A DNA stretch of 17,312 bases, from IMG/VR virus record IMGVR_UViG_2531839532_000013, positions 1 to 17,312 of that record; one strand, 5' to 3'. The stretch is from a virus (taxonomy: Duplodnaviria; Heunggongvirae; Uroviricota; Caudoviricetes). Numbering within the stretch: position 1 is the first letter of the stretch; every line of letters starts with the position of its first letter. A program made the position numbers and the translations under genes. Below the pieces are notes generated by a model. The model saw only the letters and a program-made list of their open reading frames with translations. It searched no databases and had not been told where the DNA came from. This document shows positions 684 to 15,554 of this stretch, one piece after another.

Positions 684-697
684 TACCTTTACACATT

Positions 698-1060
698 GGG
701 GCTGATTCTGGATTCGACGGGATTTGCGAAACCCAAGGTGCATGCCGAGGGGCGGTTGGCCTCGTAAAAAGCCGCAAAAAATAGTCGCAAACGACGAAAA
801 CTACGCTTTAGCAGCTTAATAACCTGCTTAGAGCCCTCTCTCCCTAGCCTCCGCTCTTAGGACGGGGATCAAGAGAGGTCAAACCCAAAAGAGATCGCGT
901 GGAAGCCCTGCCTGGGGTTGAAGCGTTAAAACTTAATCAGGCTAGTTTGTTAGTGGCGTGTCCGTCCGCAGCTGGCAAGCGAATGTAAAGACTGACTAAG
1001 CATGTAGTACCGAGGATGTAGGAATTTCGGACGCGGGTTCAACTCCCGCCAGCTCCACCA
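698..1060 (+). ncRNA. ssrA: tmRNA (SsrA, 10Sa RNA), 363 nt, ending in CCA
   Basis: Starts GGGGCTGATTCTGGATTCGACGGG (tRNA-like acceptor 5' half), contains the tag-encoding frame, ends GGTTCAACTCCCGCCAGCTCCACCA (T-arm and acceptor 3' half); matches E. coli tmRNA as I recall it. Confidence 0.95.
787..819 (+). other. tmRNA internal tag reading frame (resume codon GCA to TAA) encoding ANDENYALAA
   Basis: GCA AAC GAC GAA AAC TAC GCT TTA GCA GCT TAA read directly at 787-819 inside ssrA. Confidence 0.9.
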
Positions 1061-1070
1061 AATAAATCAA

Positions 1071-1103
1071 GGGGTTACGTGAAAGCGTAGCCCCTTTTTC
1101 TTT
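1071..1103 (+). terminator. Rho-independent terminator of ssrA
   Basis: Stem GGGGTTACG (1071-1079) / CGTAGCCCC (1086-1094) with one G-U pair, loop TGAAAG, followed by TTTTTCTTT (1095-1103). Confidence 0.7.
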
Positions 1104-1203
1104 GGTAGTGGCGGCAAAATGGCGACAGACTTTTGCGTCCATCTTGCCTGTCGCCATCTTGAAATCATGCAAAGAGGTTTCACATGGAAGAACTTCACTT
1201 TGT

Positions 1204-2541
1204 TTACATCAATGCAAATGGTCGTATCTCCAGCACGCGCTGGATGGTTCCCATCGCATCCTTCGTCATCTGCTTTTCAATCACTTCAGGATTGAGTTTC
1301 AGCAGATTCATCCCTTCAAAGAAACTCTTGCTTTGCATGGTGGCAATGGACAATTCACGCACCATCGCGTTTGCTGCACTGGCTGCAACCTCTGGCGCAG
1401 CGCCCAGTGTCAGGAAGGTGGAACCCAGCGCCGCCGCTTTACGATAATCCAGACGGTCAGCCACACCGCCCAGACGTTGCATCACATCAATGATGTCTGC
1501 CCCTTTCGACATGGCGTTATCATCCAGATAGTTCAGCGCATCGCCGAGCTGTTCAATATTGCGGGTAGGTATTTTGTAGAGCTGGGCGATTTTCCCCAGA
1601 CTTTCTGACAGTTCATCCGCTGGCAGCTCAAAGGCTGTGGCCGCCTTTGCTGCCGTACTGGCGAAGGCCAGCAGGTCACGTTTCTGGTCTTCCCAGCTGT
1701 CGTCAGGGTTTGCGACGTTCATGCGCGCACCACCTTCAACCAGTGCAGCGAAATCCACCGCACCGTTTTCCATCGGCAACTGTTCGCTGGCAGCCTTGAT
1801 GGCATCCTGCATTTCATAAAAACGTGCAGTGCGGTTGCCATTATCGTCACGCAGGCCATTGACCTGCTTTGCCACACCTTTCATGGCATCTTCCATGCTG
1901 GTATAGCTTTTTACTGCCACCATCACTGGTGCGCCCATTGCCAGCCCTGCAGCCGTGGTGGTGGCTCCGGCACCTGCAATACGATCACGCACCTCCAGCG
2001 AACGGGCATAACTGGCACGCGCTGCATTCATCCTGCGCTGAGCTTCCCCCAGTCGCTTCAGCCGCGCCTCCTGTTTCGAAAGTTCCTGGTTATAACGTGA
2101 TGTTTCACGGGCTAAACGGGCAGTTGCTCCCGCATCGTCTTTCGCAGAAATTCCCGCCCGGTACAGTTCAGCACGCACAAGCGCCGTCTGCTGCTGCAGC
2201 TTTTTCTGGCGTTCTTCCAGGCGCTGAACAGCCAGCCGTTGACGGCCCAGAGCAACAACCTGACGTTGCGAAGGCGGCCCCATCGCTCCCAGTTCCTGAC
2301 TGAGCAAATTTGCACGCTGGCGGGCATAGTTCAGCCTGTCGCCTAATTTCTGATTTTCTGCCTGCAGCTTTCGGAAGCTGTCCAGACTGCTCCCGGCCTG
2401 ATCAAGCTGCTTTATTGCATCGCGGGATTTTTTGACAGCAGCAGCCAGTTCTCTTGAACTGGCCTGCGCAGATCGAAATGGGCGGGTGAGCTTGTCAACC
2501 GCATTAAGAATGACCTGCAGACGCAGGTTGTTATCACTCAT
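1204..2541 (-). pseudogene. Tail tape-measure protein (P2 gpT-like), N-terminal 445-aa fragment, C-terminally truncated
   Basis: ATG at 2541 overlaps the stop of the upstream -1 frame extension (ATGAGTGA), the P2 E'/T arrangement. N-terminal coiled-coil region rich in Q/R/A/L followed by a tape-measure-core-like segment (KAAALGSTFLTLGAAPEVAASAANAMVRELSIATMQ). The ORF stops at 445 aa, about 140 bp from the ssrA terminator, whereas P2-type tape measures are roughly twice that length. Confidence 0.65.
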
Positions 2542-2713
2542 CGTTGGCCCCGCTTCTCTGAATCGCTTTATACCGCCATTCCAGCACTTCGGTCAGCGGC
2601 ATAACGTCAGTAACGGATGGCGGCCAGTGAAAAATGGTGGCGATATCTGCCACCAGATCGTCAACCGTCAGGCTGTCGGAAAACCGGCAAGCACCGACTT
2701 CTTCAACAAAAAA
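2534..2713 (-). CDS. gpE' -1 frame extension (E+E' frameshift product), open from the slippery site to a TGA overlapping the tape-measure ATG
   Basis: Hand translation of the -1 frame from the heptamer (minus strand, 2713 to 2707) gives 57 sense codons (VEEVGACRFSDSLTVDDLVADIATIFHWPPSVTDVMPLTEVLEWRYKAIQRSGANDE) ending at TGA 2536-2534, which overlaps the T-fragment ATG at 2541-2539. Confidence 0.55.
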   Translation of the reverse strand, partial: FFVEEVGACRFSDSLTVDDLVADIATIFHWPPSVTDVMPLTEVLEWRYKAIQRSGANDE

Positions 2714-2892
2714 GTGACAACCTCAACCGACATGGCAGTGAGATCTGCCGGGTCCATCTCTGCAATTTCCTGTGCAGTCAGTGCCGGACTGGAGATGCGG
2801 GGGATCACGGTCATCATCGCGTTTACATCCATACCGCCTGTTGCACGCTGGCGGTAGTCCTGGCGGCTGTCTTCATGGCTCAGCTTGTCCAC
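2668..2892 (-). CDS. Tail assembly chaperone gpE-like ORF (possibly 5'-truncated); zero-frame product of the E/E' frameshift pair
   Basis: Small ORF immediately upstream of the tape-measure start on the same strand; contains slippery heptamer T TTT TTG twelve codons before its stop. The ORF-track start at 2892 is GTG; first ATG is at 2832. Assignment is by position and frameshift architecture, not by sequence identity. Confidence 0.5.
   Translation of the reverse strand: MDKLSHEDSRQDYRQRATGGMDVNAMMTVIPRISSPALTAQEIAEMDPADLTAMSVEVVTFLLKKSVLAGFPTA
2707..2713 (-). other. Programmed -1 ribosomal frameshift slippery heptamer TTTTTTG (X XXY YYZ form)
   Basis: Plus-strand caaaaaa at 2707-2713 reads T TTT TTG on the minus strand, in frame as ACT TTT TTG within the gpE-like ORF; the same heptamer is used by the P2 E/E' tail chaperone genes as I recall. 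Confidence 0.55.
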
Positions 2893-3617
2893 CTCAGCTG
2901 TGCCTGCAGGGCTGTCTCCAGCTCAGACAGGCGTTCTTCCTGTTCAGACAGGGATTTTTCGGTGCGCGCACTCAGGTTTTGCTGCTCAGTGGCAACCAGC
3001 TCCACGGCCTTATGCACATCAGAGAACCGGGCATCATCGGACTGCTCTTTTTTGGTGAACAGCGCCGTGACACGGGCAAACAGGGATGGTTTTTCGTCCT
3101 GGACTTCTTCCAGTTCGATCACCGTTTCCTCTGCAGCGGTAAAAAGATTGGCGGGATTCTGCTTGCGGTTTGCCAGCGGGTTATGGGCTGCACTGGCGCT
3201 GAATGTCAGCATTTCCGTACCCAGACTGGCGGGATCATCAGTGGCGGCCAGGCCAACCAGGTAGGCTTTGCCCGTATCAGCGAACTTCGGGCTGACTTCC
3301 ATAGAGGTGAATAATTTCTGGCCTTTTTTCACCAGTTCCACCAAGGACTCCGTTGGCTCAACGTCGGCATACAGCGCCATCTTGCCTGCCAGCGGACCTT
3401 CCGTGATTTCTTCAGCAAACAGCGCCGTCACCTTGCCGTAGCGGTTAAAGGTGCTGTCCGGAAGATAAGACTTGATGTGCTCAAGGTTAATCAGCGCGGT
3501 ATACACCGCCGGGTTGTAGCTGGCTGCCATCTGTTCCAGCCATTCACGCTGGATTTCACGTCCGTCGGTAGTGGCACCTTCCACCCCGATGCGAAAACGC
3601 TTTGCTTTCACTGTCAT
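2880..3617 (-). CDS. O: Capsid scaffolding protein gpO (P2 family), 245 aa; C-terminus probably altered by a deletion junction
   Basis: ATG at 3617 with GGAG upstream; protein shows the gpO pattern (RIGVEGATTDGREI..., INLEHIKSYLPD..., KAYLVGLAATDDPASLGTEMLTF, SDDARFSDVHKAVE). It is shorter than I recall for P2 gpO and ends in LRWTS directly overlapping the gpE-like ORF. Confidence 0.8.
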   Translation of the reverse strand: MTVKAKRFRIGVEGATTDGREIQREWLEQMAASYNPAVYTALINLEHIKSYLPDSTFNRYGKVTALFAEEITEGPLAGKMALYADVEPTESLVELVKKGQKLFTSMEVSPKFADTGKAYLVGLAATDDPASLGTEMLTFSASAAHNPLANRKQNPANLFTAAEETVIELEEVQDEKPSLFARVTALFTKKEQSDDARFSDVHKAVELVATEQQNLSARTEKSLSEQEERLSELETALQAQLRWTS

Positions 3618-3695
3618 GAGCCGTGCTCCGTTAGAAAAAACTTACTGGAGCCTTATGGTTGCGGTGATGGGGGCAGTGAAACAATGCGCGGTATT

Positions 3696-3713
3696 TGTAC
3701 CGACAACCACACA
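3696..3713. promoter_or_regulatory. TGT-N12-ACA dyad, the Ogr/B-type late-activator binding site of P2/186 late promoters, in the divergent O/P intergenic region
   Basis: TGT at 3696-3698, 12-nt spacer accgacaaccac, ACA at 3711-3713; centre lies about 87 nt upstream of the O start codon and 55 nt upstream of the P start codon. Confidence 0.45.
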
Positions 3714-3759
3714 AACCGCAGGCGGGGAAAGCCTTCATTCAAGGCTGTAGGTTTGTGCC

Positions 3760-5526
3760 ATGAACACCACACTGACACCCGCAGATCTCGATCCCCGTCG
3801 GCAGGCCATGCTGCTGTACTTTCAGGGATACCGCGTAGCCCGCATTGCTGAAATGCTGGGCGAGAAAGTTGCAACCGTTCACAGCTGGAAAAAACGCGAC
3901 AAGTGGGGTGACTATGGGCCGCTGGATCAGATGCAGCTCACCACCGCCGCACGCTACTGCCAGCTCATTATGAAGGAGCACAAAGAAGGGAAAGATTTCA
4001 AAGAGATTGACCTGCTGGCGCGCCAGTCGGAGCGCCACGCGCGGATCGGCAAGTTTAACAATGGCGGCAACGAAGCCGACTTAAACCCTAACGTCGCCAA
4101 CCGCAACAAAGGCCCGCGCCGTCAGCCGGAAAAGAATGTTTTCACCGATGAGCAGATTGAGAAGCTGGAAGAAATCTTCCATTCCTCCATGTTCAACTAC
4201 CAGCGCCACTGGTGGGAAGCCGGAAAAGCCAACCGCATCCGCAACCTGCTGAAGTCACGCCAGATCGGCGCGACCTTTTACTTTGCCCGTGAAGCCCTGA
4301 TTGACGCCCTGCTTACCGGACGTAACCAGATTTTCCTTTCCGCCAGCAAGGCACAGGCCCACGTCTTTAAGCAGTACATCATCGACTTCGCCAAAGAAGT
4401 GGAGGTGGAGTTGAAAGGCGATCCGATGGTGCTTCCTAACGGGGCCACGCTTTACTTCCTCGGCACCAATGCCCGCACTGCCCAGAGTTATCACGGCAAC
4501 CTGTATCTGGATGAATATTTCTGGATACCGAAATTCCAGGAGCTGCGCAAAGTGGCTTCCGGTATGGCTATTCACAAAAAATGGCGACAAACCTATTTTT
4601 CCACGCCATCCAGCCTGACTCACAGTGCTTATCCGTTCTGGTCCGGTGCGCTGTTCAATCGTGGGCGCAACAAAGCCGATAAGGTGGACATCGACCTGTC
4701 CCACAGCAATCTGGCCCCCGGCCTGCTGTGCGCAGACGGGCAGTACCGCCAGATAGTCACTGTGGAAGATGCGGTGCGCGGCGGCTGTAACCTGTTCGAC
4801 CTCGACCAGTTGCGCATGGAGTACAGCCCGGACGAATACCAGAACCTGCTGATGTGCGAGTTTGTGGACGATCTCGCGTCCGTGTTTCCGCTCAGCGAGC
4901 TGCAGGCGTGCATGGTGGACAGTTGGGAAGTCTGGACCGACTTTCATGCTCTGGCCCTGCGCCCGTTTGGCTGGCGCGAAGTGTGGATCGGTTATGACCC
5001 GGCAAAAGGTACGCAGAACGGCGACAGCGCCGGATGCGTGGTGGTGGCACCGCCAGCCGTGCCGGGCGGTAAGTTTCGCATTCTTGAGCGTCACCAGTGG
5101 CGCGGGATGGACTTCCGCGCCCAGGCTGACGCAATCAAAAAACTGACCGAGCAGTACAACGTGACCTACATCGGCATCGACTCAACCGGCGTTGGTCACG
5201 GGGTTTACGAGAACGTGAAAGCGTTCTTTCCTGCCGTCCGGGAGTTTGTCTACAACCCCAACGTTAAAAACGCCCTGGTACTCAAGGCCTACGACATTAT
5301 CAGCCACCGCCGTCTGGAGTTTGACGCCGGACATACCGACATTGCGCAGTCATTTATGGCAATCCGTCGCGCCACCACCGCCAGTGGCAACCGCCCGACC
5401 TATGAAGCCAGCCGCAGCGAAGAAGCCAGCCACGCCGATCTGGCATGGGCAACAATGCACGCACTGTTTAACGAACCGCTGCAGGGCGAATCCGCCAATA
5501 CCAGCAATATTGTGGAGATTTTTTGA
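3760..5526 (+). CDS. P: Terminase large (ATPase/nuclease) subunit gpP, 588 aa
   Basis: ATG at 3760; strong resemblance to P2 gpP throughout (QAMLLYFQGYRVARIAEMLGEKVATVHSWKKRDKW, KSRQIGATFYFAREALIDALLTGRNQIFLSASKAQAHVFKQYII, WIGYDPAKG...DSAGCVVVAPP); stop TGA overlaps the Q start. Confidence 0.92.
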   Translation: MNTTLTPADLDPRRQAMLLYFQGYRVARIAEMLGEKVATVHSWKKRDKWGDYGPLDQMQLTTAARYCQLIMKEHKEGKDFKEIDLLARQSERHARIGKFNNGGNEADLNPNVANRNKGPRRQPEKNVFTDEQIEKLEEIFHSSMFNYQRHWWEAGKANRIRNLLKSRQIGATFYFAREALIDALLTGRNQIFLSASKAQAHVFKQYIIDFAKEVEVELKGDPMVLPNGATLYFLGTNARTAQSYHGNLYLDEYFWIPKFQELRKVASGMAIHKKWRQTYFSTPSSLTHSAYPFWSGALFNRGRNKADKVDIDLSHSNLAPGLLCADGQYRQIVTVEDAVRGGCNLFDLDQLRMEYSPDEYQNLLMCEFVDDLASVFPLSELQACMVDSWEVWTDFHALALRPFGWREVWIGYDPAKGTQNGDSAGCVVVAPPAVPGGKFRILERHQWRGMDFRAQADAIKKLTEQYNVTYIGIDSTGVGHGVYENVKAFFPAVREFVYNPNVKNALVLKAYDIISHRRLEFDAGHTDIAQSFMAIRRATTASGNRPTYEASRSEEASHADLAWATMHALFNEPLQGESANTSNIVEIF

Positions 5527-6566
5527 TGGGAAAGAGTAAGAAGAACCGAGCTGCGGCGACGAAACAGATCCAGCTTAAAAGTCAAACTACAGCCGAAGCA
5601 TTCAGCTTCGGCGATCCCGTTCCTGTTCTGGACCGCCGTGAACTGCTGGACTATGTGGAATGCGTACAGATGGACCGTTGGTATGAGCCGCCCGTCAGCT
5701 TTGACGGACTGGCGCGCACCTTCCGCGCCGCCGTGCATCACAGTTCCCCGATTGCAGTAAAGTGCAACATTCTGACCAGTACCTATATCCCTCATCCGCT
5801 GCTCAGCCAGCAGGCTTTTTCGCGTTTTGTGCAGGACTATCTGGTATTTGGTAACGCCTACCTGGAGAAACGCACGAACCGATTCGGTGAAGTTATCGCC
5901 CTTGAGCCTGCGCTGGCAAAATACACCCGACGCGGGTTAGACCTGGATACCTACTGGTTTGTGCAATACGGTATGACAACCCAGCCGTATCAGTTCACGA
6001 AAGGCAGCATTTTTCATCTAATGGAACCGGATATTAATCAGGAGATCTACGGCCTGCCCGGTTATCTTTCTGCAATTCCGTCTGCCCTGCTCAACGAGTC
6101 CGCCACGCTGTTCCGTCGAAAGTATTACATTAACGGCAGTCATGCAGGCTTCATCATGTACATGACCGATGCCGCGCAAAACCAGGAGGATGTGAACAAC
6201 CTCCGCAATGCGATGAAAAGCGCCAAAGGACCAGGTAACTTCCGCAATCTGTTTATGTACTCGCCTAACGGCAAAAAGGACGGGCTTCAGATCATCCCGT
6301 TGTCAGAAGTCGCGGCGAAGGATGAGTTTCTGAATATCAAGAACGTGAGCCGGGACGACATGATGGCAGCACACCGAGTGCCGCCGCAGATGATGGGGAT
6401 TATGCCTAATAATGTAGGGGGGTTTGGGGATGTGGAGAAAGCCAGCCGGGTATTTGTTCGGAATGAACTGATGCCTTTACAAAAACGCATTGCCGAAATT
6501 AATGAATGGTTAGATGAAGAGGTAGTCAAATTTGAATATTATGGCTTAGAAAATAATCAGTCATAA
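5526..6566 (+). CDS. Q: Portal vertex protein gpQ
   Basis: ATG at 5526 overlaps the P stop (TTGATGG); the ORF-track start at 5523 is a TTG. Co-oriented with and coupled to gpP and divergent from gpO, as in P2. Confidence 0.85.
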   Translation: MGKSKKNRAAATKQIQLKSQTTAEAFSFGDPVPVLDRRELLDYVECVQMDRWYEPPVSFDGLARTFRAAVHHSSPIAVKCNILTSTYIPHPLLSQQAFSRFVQDYLVFGNAYLEKRTNRFGEVIALEPALAKYTRRGLDLDTYWFVQYGMTTQPYQFTKGSIFHLMEPDINQEIYGLPGYLSAIPSALLNESATLFRRKYYINGSHAGFIMYMTDAAQNQEDVNNLRNAMKSAKGPGNFRNLFMYSPNGKKDGLQIIPLSEVAAKDEFLNIKNVSRDDMMAAHRVPPQMMGIMPNNVGGFGDVEKASRVFVRNELMPLQKRIAEINEWLDEEVVKFEYYGLENNQS

Positions 6567-6572
6567 AAAAGA

Positions 6573-6605
6573 AGTGAACAAGTTGAAATTATCAGCTTGT
6601 TCACT
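6573..6605. terminator. Bidirectional rho-independent terminator between convergent Q and the Q-cos cargo genes
   Basis: Perfect 10-bp stem AGTGAACAAG (6573-6582) / CTTGTTCACT (6596-6605) with a 13-nt loop; A6 run upstream on the plus strand (a U-run for the minus strand) and a weak T-rich tract downstream. Confidence 0.65.
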
Positions 6606-6621
6606 ATTATCTGTATTATCT

Positions 6622-6891
6622 CTACTGCATCCGTCCGGGTAAATCGCTTTCATTGCGTAAACGCCAAGCTAACTGTTCACGATCCCAAACTATATCGTCT
6701 TTGCTAGCCTTTCTAAAATTTGCTAGCACAGTACTGCTTATAGCGTAATTACCATTCTCATTAGTTTTGATGAACTCGTCCCCAAAGTCATTGATTAGAA
6801 ATTCAACAACCTCGGACTGATACAACACACCATTAGAACGAGTGGTATTAACCATCCAGTCAACTATTTTTATCAGAGAATCATTCATCAT
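6622..6891 (-). CDS. Hypothetical protein, about 88 aa, unrecognised; second gene of an overlapping two-gene cargo unit
   Basis: ORF-track start at 6912 is TTG; tandem ATG codons at 6891 and 6888 preceded by GAGAG. The start overlaps the stop of the upstream gene by 11 nt (minus-strand ATGATGAATGA). Visibly AT-rich relative to the phage core. Confidence 0.55.
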   Translation of the reverse strand: MMNDSLIKIVDWMVNTTRSNGVLYQSEVVEFLINDFGDEFIKTNENGNYAISSTVLANFRKASKDDIVWDREQLAWRLRNESDLPGRMQ

Positions 6892-7090
6892 CACTCTCAG
6901 CTTTTGGAACAAATAAAACTAGAGTATCTTCATGAAAAACTCCGCGCTGGTTCTTAGCACCAATAAACCACGTACAAACTGCCATTGTAGCCGATTGGTA
7001 GTGATCAATTACCATGATTGGACCATGTCCTGTTGCATGTTTTACTTTCTGGCCCGGTGTATATTTTGCCACTCTCACGTCTCCTTTCAT
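6881..7090 (-). CDS. Small DUF2158 / YodC-like protein, 69 aa
   Basis: ATG at 7090; an AAGGAG motif inside the first codons precedes in-frame GTG codons, so the true start may be a few codons later. Sequence pattern (GDVRV...GHGPIMVIDH...CTWF...GVFHEDTLVLF) fits the small YodC/DUF2158 family as I recall it. Confidence 0.6.
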   Translation of the reverse strand: MKGDVRVAKYTPGQKVKHATGHGPIMVIDHYQSATMAVCTWFIGAKNQRGVFHEDTLVLFVPKAESDDE

Positions 7091-7151
7091 GTGTAAGTTA
7101 TCAATTTCAGAATATATCTACATTAATTGCAAGTAAACATGTTTGCGCGCG

Positions 7152-7170
7152 CTCGTATCCCCGCCACGCC
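7152..7170. other. Candidate cos (cohesive end) site of the P2/186 family
   Basis: CTCGTATCCCCGCCACGCC at 7152-7170 matches the reverse complement of the 186-type 19-nt cohesive end as I remember it at about 15 of 19 positions, including the CCCCGCCACGCC core; it lies between Q and the A side, where cos sits in P2. Confidence 0.45.
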
Positions 7171-7215
7171 TGCCCGCTTTATGTAGTGGTTTTCATGCAG
7201 GAGCATGATCTACGC

Positions 7216-7239
7216 AAAAGCCCGCCAGTTCTGGCGGGC
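7216..7239 (-). terminator. Terminator-like GC hairpin with U-run on the minus strand, just beside the cos candidate
   Basis: Stem GCCCGCCA (7220-7227) / TGGCGGGC (7232-7239), loop GTTC; plus-strand AAAA at 7216-7219 gives a U-run after the hairpin on the minus strand. Confidence 0.4.
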
Positions 7240-7512
7240 CTTAGCAAAAACGATCCTCAAACGATCATGCAATCTCATGCAGCATAGACATGCACAGACG
7301 AGTAAAGCGAATCGGACTTTACGCAAGGTGAACTCCTCAGCGGGCATAATCAGTATGTCGGAAGATCTCTAAAAATAAATAATTCGGTTAACAGGTATGC
7401 TTACAAAAGCATATATTTGATTAAAAATCATGTAAGGGGGAGGATCTCAAACTGAATCGCCACGGGTTTTACAAATTTCGATAGTCTCTCTAACGTTTCG
7501 GCTGAGGTCAAA

Positions 7513-7938
7513 ATGAAAAGCTTTTACGTATTAATTTTAATTCTGGTTGCAAGCTTTGTTAGCGTCCCAGTTCAGGCGGTAACAGCTAAAAACTATGAGA
7601 AAGGAACTAAAGCTCAACAGAAATCAATATCTTACCTTTCATGTGCATTCTATGGCAGTAGCACACAATTAGATCCTAGCTACACGGAGCAAGTACCTAC
7701 AGCCGATATCAAGATATTACAGAAAGCAGCTTACCACGCTTACAACGATGCGCTCTCATACTTTGGCTATGAGGAACCAGATCACGAACAACGCATAATT
7801 GATTATGCTGAATTTGTGGCGTCGCAAGAAGCTGTGTTATGGGATAAGCCGGGAATGAATGGAAAGCAGGTAACACTAATTGCTCGTTCTCTCTACAATG
7901 AGAGTAACTGTAACTTGTTACTGGACTCAATTAAGTAG
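7513..7938 (+). CDS. Hypothetical secreted (signal-peptide) protein, 141 aa; AT-rich cargo gene
   Basis: ATG at 7513 with GAGG 8 nt upstream; N-terminus MKSFYVLILILVASFVSVPVQA has basic-hydrophobic-AxA signal-peptide form; no family recognised; visibly AT-rich block. Confidence 0.65.
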   Translation: MKSFYVLILILVASFVSVPVQAVTAKNYEKGTKAQQKSISYLSCAFYGSSTQLDPSYTEQVPTADIKILQKAAYHAYNDALSYFGYEEPDHEQRIIDYAEFVASQEAVLWDKPGMNGKQVTLIARSLYNESNCNLLLDSIK

Positions 7939-8097
7939 GAAAAAGATGGTATTTTGCCCGTAGTTTCAACCTTAATCTCCGAACCTGTCGCAGAACGGGC
8001 GTTCACTCATCAAATAAACGCCACACCTAACGCCTCACTGTACTCGTTGTTCAACCTTGCTGACGCCAGAACCAAGTTCAGACGCCAGCAACTTTTC

Positions 8098-8331
8098 TTA
8101 ATGCAGCCAGCTGTCGTCTTCCCACACCTTCTGCATAATCTTCATCACTTGTTTTCTTTCTTCGTCCAGTTGCAGTCCGGTCAGTTCCACACCGTTAGAG
8201 CTACCTTTGCGGATGCGAATTACCGTTTTGGGATACAGGGGGCGCAGATTGCGGTAAAGCTCGGATTCAAGGGCGTCCAGGGGAGACTGGCTAATCTTCT
8301 GCTCTTTATCGATCATTATTTCAATGCGCAT
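8098..8331 (-). CDS. DinI-family protein (SOS-associated RecA modulator family), 77 aa from the internal ATG
   Basis: From ATG 8331 (GAGGGG upstream) the protein MRIEIMIDKEQKISQSPLDALESELYRNL...KQVMKIMQKVWEDDSWLH aligns by eye along its whole length with E. coli DinI. The longer ORF-track start at 8403 overlaps the upstream gene and is probably not used. Confidence 0.8.
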   Translation of the reverse strand: MRIEIMIDKEQKISQSPLDALESELYRNLRPLYPKTVIRIRKGSSNGVELTGLQLDEERKQVMKIMQKVWEDDSWLH

Positions 8332-8341
8332 AAAGGTCCCC

Positions 8342-8530
8342 TCAGCTGATGACATCCATTGAGCGGTTGTATTCGTGGGTTCTGATTTTTGCCATGAGTT
8401 CATCTGTCAGTTCAGAAACCCACTGCAAAGCCAGCCCCTTCTCTTCATCACTACACTCACTAGCCGCTACAAGCTTAAGAAAAAAATCAATGCGCTGGAG
8501 CTTCAAAGACTCCAAAAAATAGTCCTGCAT
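8342..8530 (-). CDS. Small hypothetical protein, 62 aa; possible Tum-like antirepressor N-terminal module
   Basis: ATG at 8530 preceded by AGGAGG; lies directly upstream of the DinI-like gene and downstream of a LexA box. The longer track ORF from 8632 has no comparable ribosome-binding site. Function is inferred from context only. Confidence 0.5.
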   Translation of the reverse strand: MQDYFLESLKLQRIDFFLKLVAASECSDEEKGLALQWVSELTDELMAKIRTHEYNRSMDVIS

Positions 8531-8571
8531 CTTTCCTCCTATGACACCACAAGCAATACTGTATACATAAC

Positions 8572-8591
8572 CACTGTTTATATTTACAGTA
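8572..8591. promoter_or_regulatory. LexA operator (SOS box), CTGT-N8-ACAG, upstream of the small-protein/DinI-like gene pair
   Basis: CACTGTTTATATTTACAGTA at 8572-8591 with CTGT 8574-8577 and ACAG 8586-8589; an additional half-site-like TACTGTATACATA at 8557-8569; located 42-61 nt upstream of the ATG at 8530. Confidence 0.7.
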
Positions 8592-8683
8592 TATAATAAT
8601 CTTACTGATGTAAAACGTTTTTTTACGTTCATTAGCCTGATATGCCTGGTATTATTAAGAGCACGAATTGTTAACCCGCGTAA

Positions 8684-11098
8684 TTAATACAGGTTTCGCC
8701 ACTTATCATCTTCCTGCAAACGCTGGTTCCGATAGAAGATACGCAGGCCTGCTCCTGACGGAATACTGCCGCCGCGAAGGAGTAAATCGACCTCTTTCTC
8801 GCTGCCATTAAATCCTCTGGACTTCAGTTCATAGACTAGCTGCTGTCGCTGATGGTCTGTAATTCGCTGTTTGTAGTCTTTACGCCGTTTCGGTTTCACC
8901 AGGCGTAACCTTGCAGCCAGTTCCCGGCGCTCTTTTTTGCTCATACTGTGCAGGTAATCGTGCAACTCCTTGTCATCCATGCGGGTAATGTCCGTCCTGG
9001 TATCCCCATCAGCTGATTTGTCTTTCCCTTGTTGGTTCAAATTTTCAGCAAGGGGACAGTTATTGCCACGAGTCCAAGGGGCGCAAGCGCCCTGGTCGGC
9101 TGCCGCCTCCTGAACGTCAACGGCTTTACGAACCATTTTCCACTTCACTGCATGAGTGCAGATCTTGCCCTCTGCAATGGGTGACCAGATGCCATAAATA
9201 CGAATACCGTGATCGCCATAGGCGGTCGGCTCTTCGTTGATTTCATAAGCGGTTCTGATGAGGTGATATTTACGGGGAACCAGTACGCCGCCCTGCTTCA
9301 TGATGTAGGTAGCAAAACAACCAGCATCAGCAGCAGCCAGAATGGCATCAAGACGCGGGTTATCCAGTACCGGCGCACCTGCTTTTTTGTCACCCTGTTG
9401 CCTTGCCACCTGACCAGCCAGCAAGCGAAGTTCACGGTAAGCCTGACGTCCCGGAATACCAAAGAAGCGGAATTGCTGTACACGATGCAGAGACGCCCAG
9501 GCATTAACGTATTCAGCGTTATCACGCAAGGATTTACCCGTTTCCTTACTGATCTCGCCAGCCAGACCACGCCCGTCAATGTTCTTACTGATGTATTTCG
9601 CGATGTAGCTTGTCGGCGTTCCTTTGCGCGGGTTTATCAGCTCAGACTTAAAGCGTGGCTCCGTGTTATTGCCCAGCTCCTCGCGGTCTTCACGGATGGC
9701 AAACTTACGCAGTAATGCAGTGATGGCGCGGCGGTCTTTTTTGCGCATGAAACACAATAGGTGCCAGTGAACGGTGCCGTCATGATGAGGCTCAGCCACC
9801 CGCACGCCATACCAGCGCAACCCGGCTTTATGCATAGCCTTACGAAATGCAGCAAACATGCCGACCAGATAATCGCTGCTTTGTCTTACCGTCGCATTTG
9901 TCCAGGTCGGGTTGGGCCTGCCGTTATTTAGCGTGGAATGGAAACGTGACGGACAGGTGATGGTGTAGAAAACGGCGCAGTCACCGCGCATTTCCGCGAT
10001 AAGCTCCAGACCTTTAACACAGGCCATCATCTCATTGCGGCGATGCGCAGGGTTGCTGCTGCTGGCGTTTACCACATCCTCCATGTCCAGTGTGTCGCCG
10101 TCTTCGTTCACCAGTTCATGAGAACGGAAAAACTCCAGTGACTTGCGGCGCTGCTCACGTTTATGCATCACGGCTTCATAGCTAACATAGGGAGATGCTT
10201 TTTTGCTGACCAGGCAGACAGCACGCAACTGCTCTTCCCGCCATTCGCAACGCATCTTCCATAATTTCCGATACCACCAGTCGGCGCACAACATACGCGC
10301 CAGCGAACCCGGAATGAGTTCATAGGGCACGGGTTTGCGGCGGTTTCTTTTCCGACGAAGTTGCTCAAACGCAGGCGGTATGACATCCAGTCGCAGGGTT
10401 TCCGCTGCTACCTTTTCCCATGTCTTGCGGATTTCTTCTGGCTTAACATCATCGGTGGCATACAAATCGCCACAAGCGGCATCAAGGCACATGCTCATAT
10501 GCGCAGCTACCAGGGTGGACAGGCGTTTTACCTGATCCTGACTCATTTCAGGCAGAATCAGCAGGCCGTCCAGCCCTTCATGGCTTGCCATAAAGCGAAA
10601 AGAAGTGGATAGCTGACTGTCGCGTACATGCTCCAGCCGTTCCAGACATGGCTTAATCGTCTTACGCAAATAGCGGGAATAAGCCTTTGGCCTGCCCAGT
10701 CTGCTGAAGTATTCAATACGTTGCATCAGCGGCTTGCTGATATGGGAAGGCTGGGCGTTAACGTCCGCCAGAATGACCATGTCTGGATTAAAACGCTGCT
10801 GCTCATGCGCCAGCTTTGCCCGGCTAATAAGCTTATCCTGCTCCATTTCGCGTTGGACAGGATCACGGGATTCATTAAAGAAATAACGCTCCCAGACCTG
10901 ATCACTCAGTGCCTCGCGGCGCAGCTGTTCCTGCTCGTTATCGGTAGCGTACAGAGTGATCAGGTTTGAAAGCGCAGAAACCGGCGCAACTTCCGCCGGG
11001 TCCAGATAAGGGTTAATAGCCTTTTTCGGGCTGTTCCATGAGAATGCTGCGGCGACCTCGTTAACGCCGCTGCAGTTGTTCATATCGGCATGACTCAT
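8684..11098 (-). CDS. A: Replication initiation endonuclease gpA (rolling-circle initiator), 804 aa
   Basis: ATG at 11098 overlaps the Dam stop (minus-strand ATGA); HUH-type motif within [10 protein letters not shown]; size and position at the end of the early operon match P2 gpA / 186 A. Confidence 0.85.
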
Positions 11099-11952
11099 GC
11101 ACGTACTCCGTACACGGCAGAACTATCCACGCCACGCGAATAATCAAATCCCACCCAGCAGCGCGGCCCGGAAACAGCAATGATTTCTGTTGCTGATTTA
11201 CCCTCGCCAGCTGCCACACCGATGCTGCGTTTTACCTTGATATAGTGGTGAGTAAAATTGCGATACAGCGAACGGATCAGGGATGTGTCACTGTTAGAAA
11301 CAATGACCGGATGTCCTTCTGATGACCGATGTTCAAGAACGGATGCAAGGTGATACTGGTCATCTTCAGTGAAACCGTCAGTGTGATAACCGGAAAACGT
11401 ACCGTCATACGGCGGATCGCAATACACCACATCCCCCGCCTTCAACATCGCCAGCGTTTCATCAAAGCTGGCGCAGATAAACGTTGCCCGCTGGGCTTTT
11501 TCTGCAAATGCGCGAATTTCTTTTTCAGGGAAATACGGATTTTTATAATTACCGTAGGGAATGTTGAAATGCCCGCTCTTGTTATAGCGACATAAACCAC
11601 GGTAACCGTGACGATTGAGATACAGGAAATATACCGCTTTCATGAAATCAGTAATTTCAGTTGAGTAATTAAACTCCTGCCTTATGTTGTAATAAGCCAC
11701 CTCCCTGTTTGCGATCTCAAATAAAACTCTGGCGCGAGATATAAATGATTCACAATCAGCAGCAACCTTTTTATAGAGGTTGATTAAATCAGGATTAATA
11801 TCCGCAACAAGATAGCTGGGGTACTCCGTCTCCATCATCACTGCACAGGAACCCGCGAAAGGTTCAACCAGTCGCGGGCCAGCAGGAAGGTGTTTTTTCA
11901 GTTCGGACATAATTGCGGTTTTATTTCCCGCCCATTTCAGGATGGTGCTCAT
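11095..11952 (-). CDS. DNA adenine methyltransferase (Dam family), about 285 aa
   Basis: ATG at 11952 with GGAGG upstream (track start 12012 is TTG); N-terminal LKWAGNK, AdoMet-binding-like EPFAGS, and catalytic DPPY motif; an unusual C-terminal tail reaches the A start. Confidence 0.85.
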
Positions 11953-12176
11953 ACAGCACCTCCGTTGTAATGTTTGCCTTTCAGCTCTGCGATTTCCTGA
12001 CAGGTAATGCAAAGCTGCACTCCAGGAATGGCGCGGCGGCGTGCTGGCGGAATTGGCACTTCACATTCAATGCAAAGCACGCGAGACACGCCCGGTGTTT
12101 TGGCACGGGCAGCACGAATATGGCGCTGGCGTTCTTCTTCAACGCGCTGCTGTACGAGATCCATTGCATCAGCCAT
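11949..12176 (-). CDS. TraR/DksA-type C4 zinc-finger protein, 75 aa
   Basis: CxxC-N17-CxxC (CIECEVPIPPARRRAIPGVQLCITC); start ATG overlaps the upstream stop (TAATG) and its stop overlaps the Dam ATG (ATGA). Confidence 0.7.
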   Translation of the reverse strand: MADAMDLVQQRVEEERQRHIRAARAKTPGVSRVLCIECEVPIPPARRRAIPGVQLCITCQEIAELKGKHYNGGAV

Positions 12177-12409
12177 TAGTGGATCTCCTGCGCTTCGTTC
12201 TGGATTGCTTCAGCGGTCACACGCAGCAGTTCTGCCGCTTCGACGTGGTTTAGCTGGCGGGATGTGATATGACACGCAAGACTATCAAGGCGGGCAGCCA
12301 TTGCTTCAGCCCTTGCCCGGCGTTCTTCCAGACGAGCCTCTGTCAGTAAAATATTTAGCCCTACGTCATCCGGTCCGGTTTTAGTCGTGAGGGTTTCAAT
12401 ATTACGCAT
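12176..12409 (-). CDS. Hypothetical early-operon protein, about 77 aa
   Basis: ATG at 12409 preceded by AGGAG (track start 12415 is TTG); translationally coupled to the zinc-finger gene. Confidence 0.5.
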   Translation of the reverse strand: MRNIETLTTKTGPDDVGLNILLTEARLEERRARAEAMAARLDSLACHITSRQLNHVEAAELLRVTAEAIQNEAQEIH

Positions 12410-12476
12410 AATCAATTCTCCTGAATTTAGATAAAGGGATGCCCGGCGGGTTTACGCCATTAATTTCATTAGCTGG

Positions 12477-12818
12477 TTAATTCGGCATGGTTAGCCGTCT
12501 GGGAAATAAGCTCACCACTGCACGAAAATGATTCATTGCTTTAATCAACTCCCGCTTTTCGTCAGTGGTCAGCTCATTAATGCTGATGCTATGACGTTCA
12601 GCTGGAATTTTTGCCATAAAGAATATGGCAGCCAGTGCCCGTTTATTTTGTTCGCTATTAATATCCCGTGGATCACGCATATCTTTAATAAACCGTTCAA
12701 GCTCTGACTCAATATTAAGACCAAAAACTTTCGCCCTTAACTCCGCAATATGATTAAGTCCATTCAGGCGTTCACCGGGGCTTAATGGAACAGTCGCCGC
12801 AGCGCCTTCAATAGCCAT
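12477..12818 (-). CDS. Hypothetical early-operon protein, 113 aa
   Basis: ATG at 12818 preceded by GGGGGA; same strand and operon as the flanking early genes. Confidence 0.55.
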   Translation of the reverse strand: MAIEGAAATVPLSPGERLNGLNHIAELRAKVFGLNIESELERFIKDMRDPRDINSEQNKRALAAIFFMAKIPAERHSISINELTTDEKRELIKAMNHFRAVVSLFPRRLTMPN

Positions 12819-12982
12819 TTGTTCCCCCGTTTTTTCGTAGATAGTTCTGCCAGCAATTCATCTTGTGAACGGCACGGATGCCAGCGTTTACCATCCTCAC
12901 CCATGATCCAGCCGTGACCGTAGTGCATTGCCGGGCTTTGTTTAACCAGCAGCGATGCAAATGATGGTTCTTTCGTAAGCAT
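12782..12982 (-). CDS. Hypothetical small early protein, about 66 aa
   Basis: ATG at 12982 preceded by GAGGTG, 7 nt after the CII-like stop; overlaps the next gene's start by 37 nt. Confidence 0.4.
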   Translation of the reverse strand: MLTKEPSFASLLVKQSPAMHYGHGWIMGEDGKRWHPCRSQDELLAELSTKKRGNKWLLKALRRLFH

Positions 12983-12989
12983 AAGCACC

Positions 12990-13499
12990 TCACAGCAAAC
13001 CGAATGAAGCACCGAGGCCAGTCACGGTATCAACTGCACTCGCCATCGCAGGGTTAGCCTGTAAACGGGCCTGCAGTGAAACAGCAGCCAGCGCCATCAG
13101 TCGTGTTACAGAGTTAATGCTGCTGATAGCATCACGACGACCTGCACTGGTTTTTACATCGCCAGATACCGCACCTGCAGCAACACGCCCGATCTCTGCG
13201 GTTGCACTCATGACGTAATGCGGCAGTTTCTCTTTTGCTACCTCATTAATCGGTACACATGGCAGGCAGTGAATCTGTGCCAGAAAACCATCTATCAGCG
13301 TTGAATCTTCAGTCAGATCGGTAAGCAGCCAGATTTCTGGCGCATTGAGCTGATGCGGTTGATCTGGGTTGAGTTTGTTTCGCAGAGTCTGGACATTCAT
13401 TCCTGCACGTTCTGCCAGCTTCGCCATATTGTGACGAAGTGCAAAAGCTCTACAGGCTTCATCAAAATGCGGGTGTTTGGAAATCTTATAATCAAACAT
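12990..13499 (-). CDS. CII-like transcriptional activator (phage 186 CII-like), 169 aa
   Basis: ATG at 13499 preceded by AGGGGG; second gene of the leftward early operon after the Cox/Apl-like gene; HTH-like segment; strong resemblance to 186 CII as I recall it (MFD...SKHPH.DEACRAFA.RHNMAKLAE.AGMNVQTLRNKLNP...). Confidence 0.6.
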   Translation of the reverse strand: MFDYKISKHPHFDEACRAFALRHNMAKLAERAGMNVQTLRNKLNPDQPHQLNAPEIWLLTDLTEDSTLIDGFLAQIHCLPCVPINEVAKEKLPHYVMSATAEIGRVAAGAVSGDVKTSAGRRDAISSINSVTRLMALAAVSLQARLQANPAMASAVDTVTGLGASFGLL

Positions 13500-13531
13500 G
13501 CTACCCCCTTAGAAAGTTCTCATAATTGAAC

Positions 13532-13774
13532 TCACTTACCAACAATGACGCGGAAGTTGGAATGACCGAGGGATTCACGGACCTGATCGGTTTTGTACAT
13601 TAAATAACGCAGACTTACGCGGCCTTTGTTTTTTTCTTTCTTGACCATGTATTTAGCAAGCTGACCATGGTGAATTTTTTGATACACGGAGCCGCGGGAG
13701 ATACCTTCCCATTCCGCGAACTCTGCAGGCGTAGCCATCTCTTTTGGTACACGAATTGAAATATCAGTGCTCAT
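13532..13774 (-). CDS. Cox/Apl-like excisionase / early transcriptional regulator, 80 aa
   Basis: ATG at 13774 preceded by GGGAG; first gene of the lytic operon, facing the repressor gene; HTH-like segment. Confidence 0.6.
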   Translation of the reverse strand: MSTDISIRVPKEMATPAEFAEWEGISRGSVYQKIHHGQLAKYMVKKEKNKGRVSLRYLMYKTDQVRESLGHSNFRVIVGK

Positions 13775-13809
13775 AGTGCAGTATCTCCCGATTAAGGTTT
13801 GGTTTACGT

Positions 13810-13876
13810 CGTTTTATCTCGTTTTACTTGATTCAATATTTGATACATAGAGATACTACGATCCAATATTTGATAC
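13810..13876. promoter_or_regulatory. Immunity-region operator candidates: two 13-bp direct repeats CAATATTTGATAC and tandem CGTTTTA repeats
   Basis: CAATATTTGATAC at 13834-13846 and 13864-13876 (30-bp spacing), overlapping the spacer and downstream side of the leftward promoter; CGTTTTA at 13810-13816 and 13820-13826. Confidence 0.5.
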
Positions 13877-13881
13877 GTCAA
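13853..13881 (-). promoter_or_regulatory. Strong sigma70 early lytic promoter (leftward): -35 TTGACG, 17-nt spacer, -10 TAGTAT
   Basis: On the minus strand TTGACG (plus 13876-13881), spacer TATCAAATATTGGATCG, TAGTAT (plus 13853-13858); drives the Cox/Apl-like to A operon. Confidence 0.55.
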
Positions 13882-13893
13882 CAGGATTAAAAA

Positions 13894-14526
13894 ATGATAC
13901 AGGTAAAGGCTGGAGAGAATACAGGGGGAAGAGAGGCTATCCATAGACTAATGGCAGCCTATGATTTCAAGTCCAGACAGCAACTTTGCGATCACTTAGG
14001 CGCATCAAAAAGCACCATGGCAAACAGATACTTAAGAGATAGTTTTCCTGCAGAGTGGGTGATTCAGTGCGCCTTGGAAACAGGAGTTTCTTTACTGTGG
14101 CTAACCACCGGACAGGGAGAGCCAGGTCCAAACATTAAACCTAAAAAAAATATCAATTCCGTGAACTCCAGCAAGGTTGTACCTCTTTCTGAACTAGTAT
14201 CTCCTGAAATTGACAAGGCGACTCTCAACGGTGGTTTATTGGTCGATGCTGGAAAAGCAATCATTGATAGCAGCATACTCCCCTCAGACTCAAGCAACCT
14301 ACTGCTGGTGACTACTTCTGGTGATTCTTATTTAATAGATCGCAACCAAACACCACCAGTAAATGGTATGTGGTTAGTCGATATCGACGGGATAAAAAGC
14401 ATTGTTAAATTGACTCGGCTCCCGGGAAACAAATTAGTAGTGCATCAGGATGATTCATCGTTTGAGTGCGGTCTGGATGACATTGAGGTAGTAGGCCGCG
14501 CACTGAAAATCATTAAGAGCCTTTGA
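13894..14526 (+). CDS. CI-type immunity repressor (phage 186 CI-like), 210 aa
   Basis: ATG at 13894 with AGGA upstream; N-terminal HTH region (...STMANRYLRDSFPAEWVIQCALETGVSLLWLTTGQGEP) resembles 186 CI; immediately upstream of and co-oriented with int. Confidence 0.75.
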   Translation: MIQVKAGENTGGREAIHRLMAAYDFKSRQQLCDHLGASKSTMANRYLRDSFPAEWVIQCALETGVSLLWLTTGQGEPGPNIKPKKNINSVNSSKVVPLSELVSPEIDKATLNGGLLVDAGKAIIDSSILPSDSSNLLLVTTSGDSYLIDRNQTPPVNGMWLVDIDGIKSIVKLTRLPGNKLVVHQDDSSFECGLDDIEVVGRALKIIKSL

Positions 14527-14527
14527 T

Positions 14528-15541
14528 ATGACCATCAGAAAACAGCCGAACGGAAAATGGTTGTGTGAGTGCTATCCCAATGGACGCAATGGCAAGCGCG
14601 TGCGTAAGCAATTTGCTACGAAAGGCGAAGCCATTGCGTTTGAAAGCTTCACAATGGAAGAAGTGAATAAAAAACCGTGGTTGGGTGAAAAGGATGATCG
14701 GCGACGCCTATCAGAATTAATTGAGCTTTGGTATTCCCTGTATGGTCAAACACTCGCAGACCCCAAGCGCCTCATGGCGAAACTTAGAATTATCTGTAAT
14801 GGTCTAGGCGATCCCATCGCCTCAGAACTGACAGCTGGTGACTTTACAAAATACCGCGAAGCACGGTTAAAAGGTGAAATACGAAATGAAGATGGCACAC
14901 TTATGTCGCCCGTAAAGCCCCGTACGGTAAACCTTGAACAGCGCAATCTATCATCTGTGTTCGGTACATTAAAAAAACTAGGACACTGGTCAGCACCAAA
15001 CCCGCTGGCAGGACTTCCGACCTTCAAAATTGCCGAAGGTGAGCTGGCTTTTCTTTCCACGGACGAAATCAAGCGCCTGTTGGCGGCATGTGCTGAATCT
15101 CAAAACCCTAGCTTACTAATGATTGCAAAAATATGCCTAGCTACTGGCGCACGGTGGAGTGAAGCCGAAAATCTGCAGGGCCACCAAATATCGAAATACC
15201 GAATTACTTATACAAAAACAAAAGGCAAGAAAAACAGAACAGTACCCATATCACAGGAGCTGTATGACGAACTCCCAAAGAACAGAGGGAAGTTATTCTC
15301 ACCATGTAGAAAAGCCTTTGAACGAGCAGTAAAACGGGCAGGTATAGATCTACCGGATGGCCAATGCACCCACGTGCTGCGACATACGTTTGCTAGCCAC
15401 TTTATGATGAATGGCGGGAACATACTTGTGCTAAGGGATATTTTGGGACATTCGGATATCAAGATGACCATGGTTTACTCACATTTCTCACCAGATCATC
15501 TTGAAGATGCCGTTACTAAGAACCCATTAAACTTGATATAA
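14528..15541 (+). CDS. int: Tyrosine integrase, P2/186 type, 337 aa
   Basis: ATG at 14528, 1 nt after the repressor stop; strong resemblance to P2 Int including GRNGKR near the N-terminus, LATGARWSEA, HVLRHTFASHFMMNGG and the catalytic-tyrosine region MVYSHF. Confidence 0.92.
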   Translation: MTIRKQPNGKWLCECYPNGRNGKRVRKQFATKGEAIAFESFTMEEVNKKPWLGEKDDRRRLSELIELWYSLYGQTLADPKRLMAKLRIICNGLGDPIASELTAGDFTKYREARLKGEIRNEDGTLMSPVKPRTVNLEQRNLSSVFGTLKKLGHWSAPNPLAGLPTFKIAEGELAFLSTDEIKRLLAACAESQNPSLLMIAKICLATGARWSEAENLQGHQISKYRITYTKTKGKKNRTVPISQELYDELPKNRGKLFSPCRKAFERAVKRAGIDLPDGQCTHVLRHTFASHFMMNGGNILVLRDILGHSDIKMTMVYSHFSPDHLEDAVTKNPLNLI

Positions 15542-15554
15542 AACAGCCAAAATT

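Follow-up and report, generated by a model that had tools for sequence, protein, structure and literature searches.

In P2-like phages, the region bounded by the portal gene Q and the replication gene A is a described hotspot of gene exchange. In the passages that deal with it, Rousset et al. (2022; PMC9122126) place it between gpA and gpQ, next to cos, count 1,650 arrangements in 18,150 Escherichia coli loci, test several occupants, confirm old and tin, and cite Odegrip (2006) and Nilsson (2004) as earlier work; the corresponding passages of a preprint by Moura de Sousa et al. (2026) describe an A..Q hotspot in P2-like elements, plus a minor one between int and att. Here, we examine this region in a 17,312-nucleotide (nt) stretch of DNA, positions 1 to 17,312 of IMG/VR virus record IMGVR_UViG_2531839532_000013 (the window), which matches the chromosome of E. 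coli strain 300709 (NZ_CP025903) at 100% identity and, judged from its sequence, is a P2/186-like prophage remnant integrated at ssrA. The interval under study, 6567-8683, is the exact gap between the Q stop and the A stop. It is very probably the cos-proximal accessory hotspot of a 186-type, SOS-inducible P2-like prophage, preserved in the remnant, and its variable DNA falls not into one hotspot but into two slots that assort independently, one on each side of a conserved cos island: slot A between Q and the island, and slot B between the island and the terminator of a gene pair next to A that carries a predicted LexA box and resembles the tum genes of phages 186 and PSP3.

The hotspot is already known, and this very locus with it: the NZ_CP025903 locus is a row of Table S5A of Rousset et al. 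(PMC9122126), where it is given as four "hypothetical" proteins and DinI (WP_001154434, WP_024169233, WP_096997786, WP_000834899, and WP_001217575). The published gpA-gpQ hotspot and the interval agree in their anchors, cos-adjacent position, extreme turnover, and kinds of occupant. The published passages treat A..Q as one hotspot and count DinI and its small neighbor as content, whereas we find two slots, a backbone tum pair, and a variable zone that starts inside Q; two-slot anatomy, backbone tum pair, and linked portal tail were not found in those passages of either the 2022 paper or the 2026 preprint.

The gene order A, accessory genes, cos, portal is the same in P2 and 186 as in the window. 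In P2, the exclusion genes old and tin are expressed in the lysogen and lie between A and cos, with a promoter near cos that reads away from it; this position corresponds to slot B. The comparison with old and tin made in a first-pass annotation of the sequence is correct. Between Q and cos, P2 has only a terminator (187 bp), unlike slot A of the window, and the P2 terminator tQ and the 186 terminator tW stand at the same place after the portal gene as the first hairpin of the interval. Where the window has the tum pair, P2 has orf91, and no sequence similarity links the P2 cargo to the cargo described here. In 186, p95-tum-orf97 occupies the same place directly downstream of A, the LexA box overlaps the -10 element, and the C-terminal half of Tum is DinI-like. 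In PSP3 and Fels-2, tum is split into tumA and tumB, and in PSP3 the upstream product is small, as in the window; the PSP3 genes are annotated as tumA ("UV induction of prophage") and tumB (DinI-like), and Lemire et al. (2011; PMC3121763) note that the upstream one holds the antirepressor activity. The slot-B position is filled by orf97 in 186 and by orf37 and orf38 in PSP3.

Turnover was assessed in two sets of genomes. We searched 5,426 complete E. coli genomes for the Q..A locus, the interval, and its two AT-rich cargo blocks. A related Q..A locus is present in 1,328 of them, and the interval is found over at least 80% of its length in just 3; the first of these blocks (block 1) occurs in 8 genomes and the second (block 2) in 101, always at 99% identity or more. 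A further 160 related loci were fetched with the portal protein as anchor, 80 from contigs representing one genome per species and 80 from IMG/VR. In each, we mapped the Q stop, the cos 12-mer CCCCGCCNCGCC, DinI, the 62-amino-acid (aa) gene next to A, and A itself; Pfam Phage_portal and Phage_GPA matches mark the two anchors of the homologous loci. Slot statistics were taken from the 118 loci with Q, cos, and A, with sequence types defined at 90% identity and 80% coverage, and the term close relatives is used for the 71 loci with a portal identity of 90% or more.

Among the 118 loci, there are 94 sequence types in slot A, 51 in slot B, and 113 combinations of the two. The distance from the Q stop to cos ranges from 156 to 3,507 bp, the lower value being an empty slot as in P2 and 186, whose portal genes end 186-195 bp from the genome end; from cos to DinI, it ranges from 146 to 4,510 bp. 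The conservation profile of the window against 159 loci is clean, with sharp edges at about 6480-6560, 7140, 7300, and 8020. Q is kept to about 6480 and has decayed by 6560, 6560-7130 is covered by none of the 159 loci, and coverage then returns to 101-133 loci over 7140-7300, an island on both flanks of which it falls to 0-10. Only 6 loci cover 7300-8020, after which conservation is back from about 8020-8040 on (77-99 loci). The region lies between gpQ and gpA, includes a cos site by alignment, turns over between near-identical flanks, and holds validated anti-phage occupants elsewhere. Genes in the Q..A interval have been replaced again and again, which makes it a true hotspot, as the first-pass annotation had proposed, although that annotation took it for a single one.

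The two slots are exchanged separately. The slot-B cassette of the window recurs in five other sampled loci together with four distinct slot-A cassettes, none of them the window's own. Conversely, the identical slot-A cassette is found with at least three different slot-B contents: strain COL60J carries it, with a different slot B, in a prophage that seems intact and is inserted elsewhere in the chromosome, and strain GPEC60-12-649 has it with yet other slot-B content. Strain KL53 (NZ_CP030919) has an IS1B insertion sequence (IS) in the slot-A cassette near the DUF6953 gene, and copies of IS1A and IS26 lie within the Q..A loci of other relatives.

The occupants of the slots elsewhere are varied. 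A spread sample of other E. coli loci yielded retrons St85 and Ec67, PIN, TIR, and HNH proteins, AAA/KAP NTPases, DUF262/GmrSD, AIPR, an S1 peptidase, DUF4145, SieB, an OLD-like nuclease, and HsdR-N, among others. PADLOC matches of the largest slot-A open reading frames (ORFs) of relatives include PARIS AriA, AbiLi, AbiU, retron reverse transcriptase types, bSEFIR, PD-T7-4, and PDC families, and those of slot B a type II restriction endonuclease, Septu PtuA, DarG, and NsnA. Of 86 slot-A sequence types, 83 have a largest ORF that converges on Q (e.g., L091 10813-11727 and L124 10091-11839), so that slot-A cargo is read from the cos side toward the portal gene; the largest ORFs of slot B take both orientations (13 plus, 35 minus).

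The left boundary of the mosaic does not lie at 6567, just past the end of Q, where the first-pass annotation had set it. The last 27 or so codons of Q (about 6483-6566) are hypervariable: in 47 relatives with distinct slot-A cargo, mean pairwise identity is 43% in this tail, as obtained from proper alignment, versus 98% over residues 1-320. Portal tails are 98% identical between loci that share a slot-A cassette, and no pair with different slot-A cassettes has an identical tail. The mosaic thus begins at about 6483, inside Q, and the tail travels with the slot-A cargo; it may be a mere scar of slot-A exchange or a functional partner in it, with a possible tie to packaging or to the cargo. Throughout its variation, the tail keeps a helical pattern, L.ELN.WL..E.I.F..Y.L.

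The island that parts the two slots is about 160 bp long. Within it, the putative cohesive-end 19-mer, which reads GGCGTGGCGGGGATACGAG on the reverse strand, agrees with the annotated 186 cos in 15 of its 19 nt, and the alignment continues into the flanking DNA; 106 of 137 relatives share the 19-mer. The alignment points to 7152-7170 as the putative cos site. GGCGTGGCGGGGATACGAG differs at four of its last six positions from the GGCGTGGCGGGGAAAGCAT of 186 and PSP3, and also from the P2 sequence, whereas its first 12 nt are nearly invariant. An ORF at 7205-7372, lying mostly inside the island and extending into slot B, was considered as a gene and rejected; it has no family matches.

The features named in the first-pass annotation are present, namely, the AT-rich gene pair before cos, the gene with a putative signal peptide after cos, the LexA-box pair, and the hairpins that part them. 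That annotation also held that the three units are compositionally distinct cargo blocks. As a whole, the interval is indeed AT-rich, with a guanine-plus-cytosine (GC) content of 42.0% versus 53.6% for P, Q, and A together. Blocks 1 and 2 have 37.7% GC (over 6567-7144) and 40.2% GC (over 7373-8027), and block 3, the LexA-box pair, 44.2%, and all core-gene windows of the same size lie above the GC of each block (z = -6.5, -5.9, and -4.2, respectively); the cos block at 7145-7372 is core-like with 52.2%. The division into three compositions did not hold, as block 1 does not differ from block 2 (chi-square, p=0.41) nor block 2 from block 3 (p=0.15). GC at third codon positions (GC3) is 0.29-0.40 in the cargo genes versus 0.57-0.71 in core genes, and in block 3 it is core-like, 0.60 in the DinI-like gene and 0.52 in the 62-aa gene, against 0.59 in Q and 0.57 in A. 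Block 3 is low in GC because of its promoter and intergenic DNA, and the argument from composition to three separate origins fails.

One might take the same figures to mean that the interval is simply ancestral backbone, AT-rich only in the regulatory and intergenic DNA around cos, with no gene gain at all. Part of the low GC of block 3 does have that cause, and the cos island and the tum pair are ancestral. We nevertheless regard this reading as hardly tenable, given the low GC3 of the cargo coding sequences and the near absence of the two slots elsewhere (slot A in 0 and slot B in 6 of 159 loci; among about 1,300 E. coli prophages, slot A in 8 and slot B in 101). Clearly, neither a uniform composition nor a gene set shared identically by the relatives was found.

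The pair next to A should not be counted as cargo. Homologues of the 62-aa gene adjoin A in 108 of 118 loci and in all 71 close relatives, and in 92 of the 108 the distance from the A stop falls within one 100-bp range. For DinI, the counts are 85 of the 118 and 66 of the 71. The predicted LexA box, a perfect CTGT-N8-ACAG, lies 43 nt upstream of the 62-aa start codon, and 103 of 109 relatives have a CTGT-N8-ACAG in the stretch from A to the 62-aa gene; a generic promoter scan did not return this SOS promoter because its spacer is 15 nt. The DinI-like protein is 77% identical to PSP3 TumB and 41% identical to the C-terminal half of 186 Tum (residues 71-145), and window positions 8027-8056 align to the 186 region between orf97 and t95b. 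The hairpin that follows the DinI-like gene probably ends the SOS operon. This presence, the conserved box, the core-like GC3, and the equivalence to tum of 186 and PSP3 identify the pair, at the level of sequence, as conserved backbone, the SOS-induction module of the lineage.

That the LexA-box pair is instead the third of three separately acquired cargo blocks at one hotspot, each with its own composition, was the first-pass view. It has in its favor that the interval contains three units on alternating strands parted by hairpins and cos, that all three blocks are below core GC, and that the pair is not universal across the P2 family, P2 itself having orf91, tin, and old instead. We consider it very improbable all the same: the pair is near-universal in the sampled loci at a mostly fixed distance from A, its box is kept and its GC3 core-like, it is known from 186 and PSP3 as the tum module, composition does not tell block 1 from block 2, and the cos island splits the variable DNA. 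An ORF at 7954-8349, antisense to the DinI-like gene and without family matches, was rejected as a gene. The LexA box is also one arm of an 18-nt imperfect palindrome at 8556-8592 (83% complementary), the other arm of which contains a half-box (...ACAGTAT) that may be either a further, weak LexA site or accidental.

The 62-aa product is a candidate antirepressor, as judged from local alignment, size, and gene position. By Smith-Waterman alignment, it scores 57 against the N-terminal half of 186 Tum, compared with 21 +/- 4 for shuffled sequences, none of 500 of which reaches that score, and the aligned proteins share the motif C-x7-AL-x-[LW][IV][AS]E[IL]. It is highly diverged from its 186 and PSP3 counterparts, as would be expected if it co-evolves with a different CI.

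Both slots are refilled often, each independently of the other, most likely by homologous recombination between co-resident or co-infecting P2-like genomes, with crossovers in the Q body, in the cos island, and in tumB and the tum terminator; the exchange may be stimulated by the DNA ends that arise at cos. Homologous exchange is the most economical explanation because the interval has no recombinase and no bracketing repeats. The movement of the Q tail with the cargo fits crossovers in the conserved body of Q. On this account, slot A, between the hypervariable 3' end of Q and cos, holds a two-gene operon read from the cos side toward Q; next comes the cos island (about 160 bp), which no packageable relative can lose, and slot B, reaching from cos to the tum terminator, holds a self-contained gene for a small, putatively exported helical protein. 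In the adjoining SOS module, LexA would repress the promoter of the tumA-like 62-aa gene and the DinI-like tumB; in intact relatives, DNA damage would lead to expression of the pair, inactivation of CI, and induction of the phage. The cargo would consist of autonomous units expressed in the lysogen (morons), which in relatives are mostly anti-phage systems.

Insertion of the cassettes by a dedicated mobile-DNA mechanism, that is, transposition, a site-specific recombinase (integron-like or other), or IS capture, has to be weighed against homologous exchange. The IS1 or IS26 copies inside some relatives' loci speak for it, and so do homologues of the slot-B 141-aa protein in three unrelated phage positions, which lie beyond the reach of homologous flanks alone. 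In the interval, there is no recombinase or transposase gene, and no direct or inverted repeats bracket the cassettes, the only repeats being short two-copy matches judged to be due to chance (e.g., 15 nt at 6473 and 7238, 87% identity). The breakpoints fall where conserved backbone segments stop; the one on the left lies inside Q, whose divergent tail moves with the cargo, which is the signature of a homologous crossover in the conserved Q body. A dedicated mechanism thus seems very unlikely.

Several points weigh against the account preferred here, in which a backbone tum pair adjoins two slots refilled by homologous exchange. The related-locus set (80 + 80) is a top-hit sample and not a census. 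By BLASTP, the 62-aa protein has no match in either 186 Tum or PSP3 TumA, its Smith-Waterman match to PSP3 TumA is marginal (score 33, p about 0.03), and the proposed homology to Tum draws on a shuffle-tested local alignment together with synteny. The recombination mechanism is deduced from breakpoint positions only, and a cos island of 160 bp is short for efficient RecA-dependent exchange.

The two cargo units consist of real genes that are under purifying selection, as judged from the ratio of nonsynonymous to synonymous substitution rates (dN/dS, 0.08-0.27) and from an operon partner kept across genera. In slot A, the DUF6953 protein matches PF22266 at 5.9e-24 (84.5 bits, above the cut-off of 27) and has a dN/dS of 0.08 against its Klebsiella homologue. 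The 63-aa gene upstream overlaps the DUF6953 start by 11 nt; its match to Pfam DUF2158/YodC (PF09926) scores 19.5 bits (E = 8e-4), below the 22.3 cut-off, and for this reason it is named no more than "DUF2158-like". The intact operon of the two genes sits at the same Q-proximal slot in Klebsiella P2-like elements; IMG/VR yielded no relative in a pattern scan for DUF6953. Reading the pair as a type II toxin-antitoxin system was rejected, as it carries no toxin or antitoxin signature. This small cytoplasmic pair could be a new anti-phage or regulatory module, a suggestion we make with low confidence.

Slot B holds the 141-aa protein gene, with a promoter-like site upstream. As read from the sequence, the N-terminus of the protein (MKS, a 17-residue hydrophobic run, and VQA|V) resembles a typical signal peptide; among homologues, it varies in sequence and keeps its signal-like character, and in one Enterobacter homologue a lipobox-like LSAC replaces the VQA cleavage site. 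The mature part is predicted to be all-helical, AlphaFold giving five helices after the signal peptide at a predicted local distance difference test (pLDDT) score of 78 and a detached, low-confidence N-terminal helix, and it has two cysteines, C44, kept in every aligned homologue, and C132. The family is tiny, with just 13 clusters at 50% identity in 1.84 billion representative proteins, and dN/dS against homologues of other genera is 0.18-0.27. Homologues occupy three different cargo positions: in Klebsiella P2-like elements, the slot from cos to tumA; in a Hafnia P2-like prophage, the gap from gpS to gpV; and in a lambdoid prophage, its end, after the tail-fiber genes. Like the lambdoid morons bor and lom, the gene is AT-rich, has promoter-like DNA upstream, occupies unrelated cargo positions, and is under purifying selection; unlike in a standard moron, the hairpin after it is assigned to the convergent tum operon, and the protein has no sequence or fold relation to any characterized moron product. 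An exported protein of this kind might act in the envelope, in superinfection exclusion or immunity, and we hold this, too, only tentatively.

The first-pass annotation named such a hotspot as the place where novel defense genes are most often found. Relatives do carry retrons, PARIS, Abi, Septu, and DarG, but the present copy matches no known defense model. When every interval ORF was scanned with PADLOC, Pfam, and NCBIfam, nothing came up beyond DUF6953, the weak DUF2158, and DinI, and the 141-aa protein has no match in any of the three. Against PADLOC-DB v2, the five interval proteins have no match at E <= 0.1, and the sole match in the window is a deoxycytidine triphosphate (dCTP) deaminase outside the interval. 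Sequence searches of the Protein Data Bank (PDB) with the three cargo proteins returned nothing below E = 0.06, Foldseek against BFVD gave no match at E < 0.9, and tblastn with both cargo proteins returned nothing from 50,697 phage records. Rfam on 6400-8800 gave one sub-threshold match, which was taken as chance.

The cargo here may well have no anti-phage role; we put at about even the chance that it consists of lysogenic-conversion or fitness genes (an envelope or virulence factor) or of small lifecycle regulators. The missing PADLOC matches agree with this, as do the very small size of both units beside typical occupants and the occurrence of 141-aa homologues where bor and lom typically sit, and, according to the passages on the hotspot in Rousset et al. 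(PMC9122126), it also holds partition systems and the cytolethal distending toxin. On the other side, most characterized occupants of both slots are defense systems, and in the same passages about one third of hotspot candidates not tested before scored as defense once cloned. A joint proposal, that at least one cargo unit shields the lysogen from other phages and, separately, that the two slots are exchanged through cos ends with the portal tail as scar or partner, is possible and rather doubtful as a whole.

The setting of the interval is that of a reduced prophage (Table 1). The RefSeq order is ssrA, truncated tape measure, gpE, truncated gpO, P, Q, the interval, A, dam, CII, CI, and int, with dam, early genes, and CII between A and CI. 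The truncated tape-measure and gpO pseudogenes now abut (1204-3617), and most virion genes are lost: N through FII are missing, as are U, D, and ogr. The remnant has kept the terminase, the portal, cos, every cargo position, and the replication and immunity genes. Past int lies the anti-phage dCTP deaminase gene. A 46-bp exact copy of the ssrA 3' end is found 223 bp past the start of this gene (L178 2067-2112), and the gene therefore lies between int and attR, inside the P2-like element; its position is that of the minor int-att hotspot in the preprint passages of Moura de Sousa et al. (2026). Beyond the gene and the repeat are a second integrase and an island with NACHT and RelA/SpoT genes.

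Table 1. Features of the interval and of the surrounding remnant, in window coordinates unless a related locus is named
Feature	Position	Strand	Remarks
smpB	window start		window begins inside gene
ssrA (transfer-messenger RNA, tmRNA)	698-1060		
Tape-measure gene, truncated	1204-2541		RefSeq
gpE/E'			RefSeq
Scaffold gene gpO, truncated	2880-3617		RefSeq
Terminase P	3760-5526		
Portal gene Q, left anchor	5523-6566	+	RefSeq "phage portal protein"
Slot A cassette, AT-rich cargo unit 1	6567-7139	-	Q stop to cos island
Hairpin, 14-bp stem	6573-6605		between convergent Q and DUF6953; terminator-like in both directions
DUF6953 gene, 89 aa	6622-6891	-	downstream gene of operon; Pfam PF22266, phrog_10782
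DUF2158-like gene, 63 aa	6881-7072	-	GTG start behind AAGGAG; RefSeq WP_024169233; phrog_3261, 1e-7
Conserved cos island, about 160 bp	7140-7300		aligns to 186 and P2 cos junctions
Putative cohesive-end 19-mer	7152-7170		reverse complement GGCGTGGCGGGGATACGAG
GC-rich hairpin in cos island	7220-7239		
Slot B cassette, AT-rich cargo unit 2	7301-8020	+	cos island to tum terminator
Promoter-like site	7388-7417		upstream of 141-aa gene
141-aa protein gene, putative signal peptide	7513-7938	+	phrog_7437, 4e-99, family without known function
Homologues of the 141-aa protein	L179 5001-5426; L184 5001-5429; L181 5001-5426		
Terminator-like hairpin, 16-bp stem	8057-8091	-	just 3' of DinI-like gene, inside conserved block
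DinI-like gene, 77 aa, tumB equivalent	8098-8331	-	Pfam DinI 8e-22
62-aa gene, candidate tumA-like antirepressor	8342-8530	-	phrog_698, 1.5e-37
Predicted SOS promoter region	8572-8614	-	LexA box CTGTAAATATAAACAG (gene orientation) 8574-8589; -10-like TATACT overlapping; -35-like TTTACA 8609-8614
Replication endonuclease gene A, right anchor	8684-11098	-	RefSeq "replication endonuclease"
CI	13894-14526		
int	14528-15541		
dCTP deaminase gene	15555-17312	-	RefSeq name; PADLOC dCTPase 3e-146; 33% GC; 13 bp after int

For the P2-like family, these results resolve what was published as a single A-Q hotspot into two slots that assort independently on either side of a 160-bp cos island, and add that the last 27 portal residues are swapped together with the slot-A cargo. 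The DinI and small-ORF genes are SOS backbone, and we recommend that they be masked when the hotspot is mined for new defense genes. The two cargo units, being rare, selected, and unannotated, are cheap candidates for phage challenge; if a protective role is true, either would be a new, very small defense or superinfection-exclusion system. The locus also serves as an example of a prophage that is without virion genes yet has three accessory positions, including one with an anti-phage dCTP deaminase, and the remnant is in effect a phage-derived defense island.

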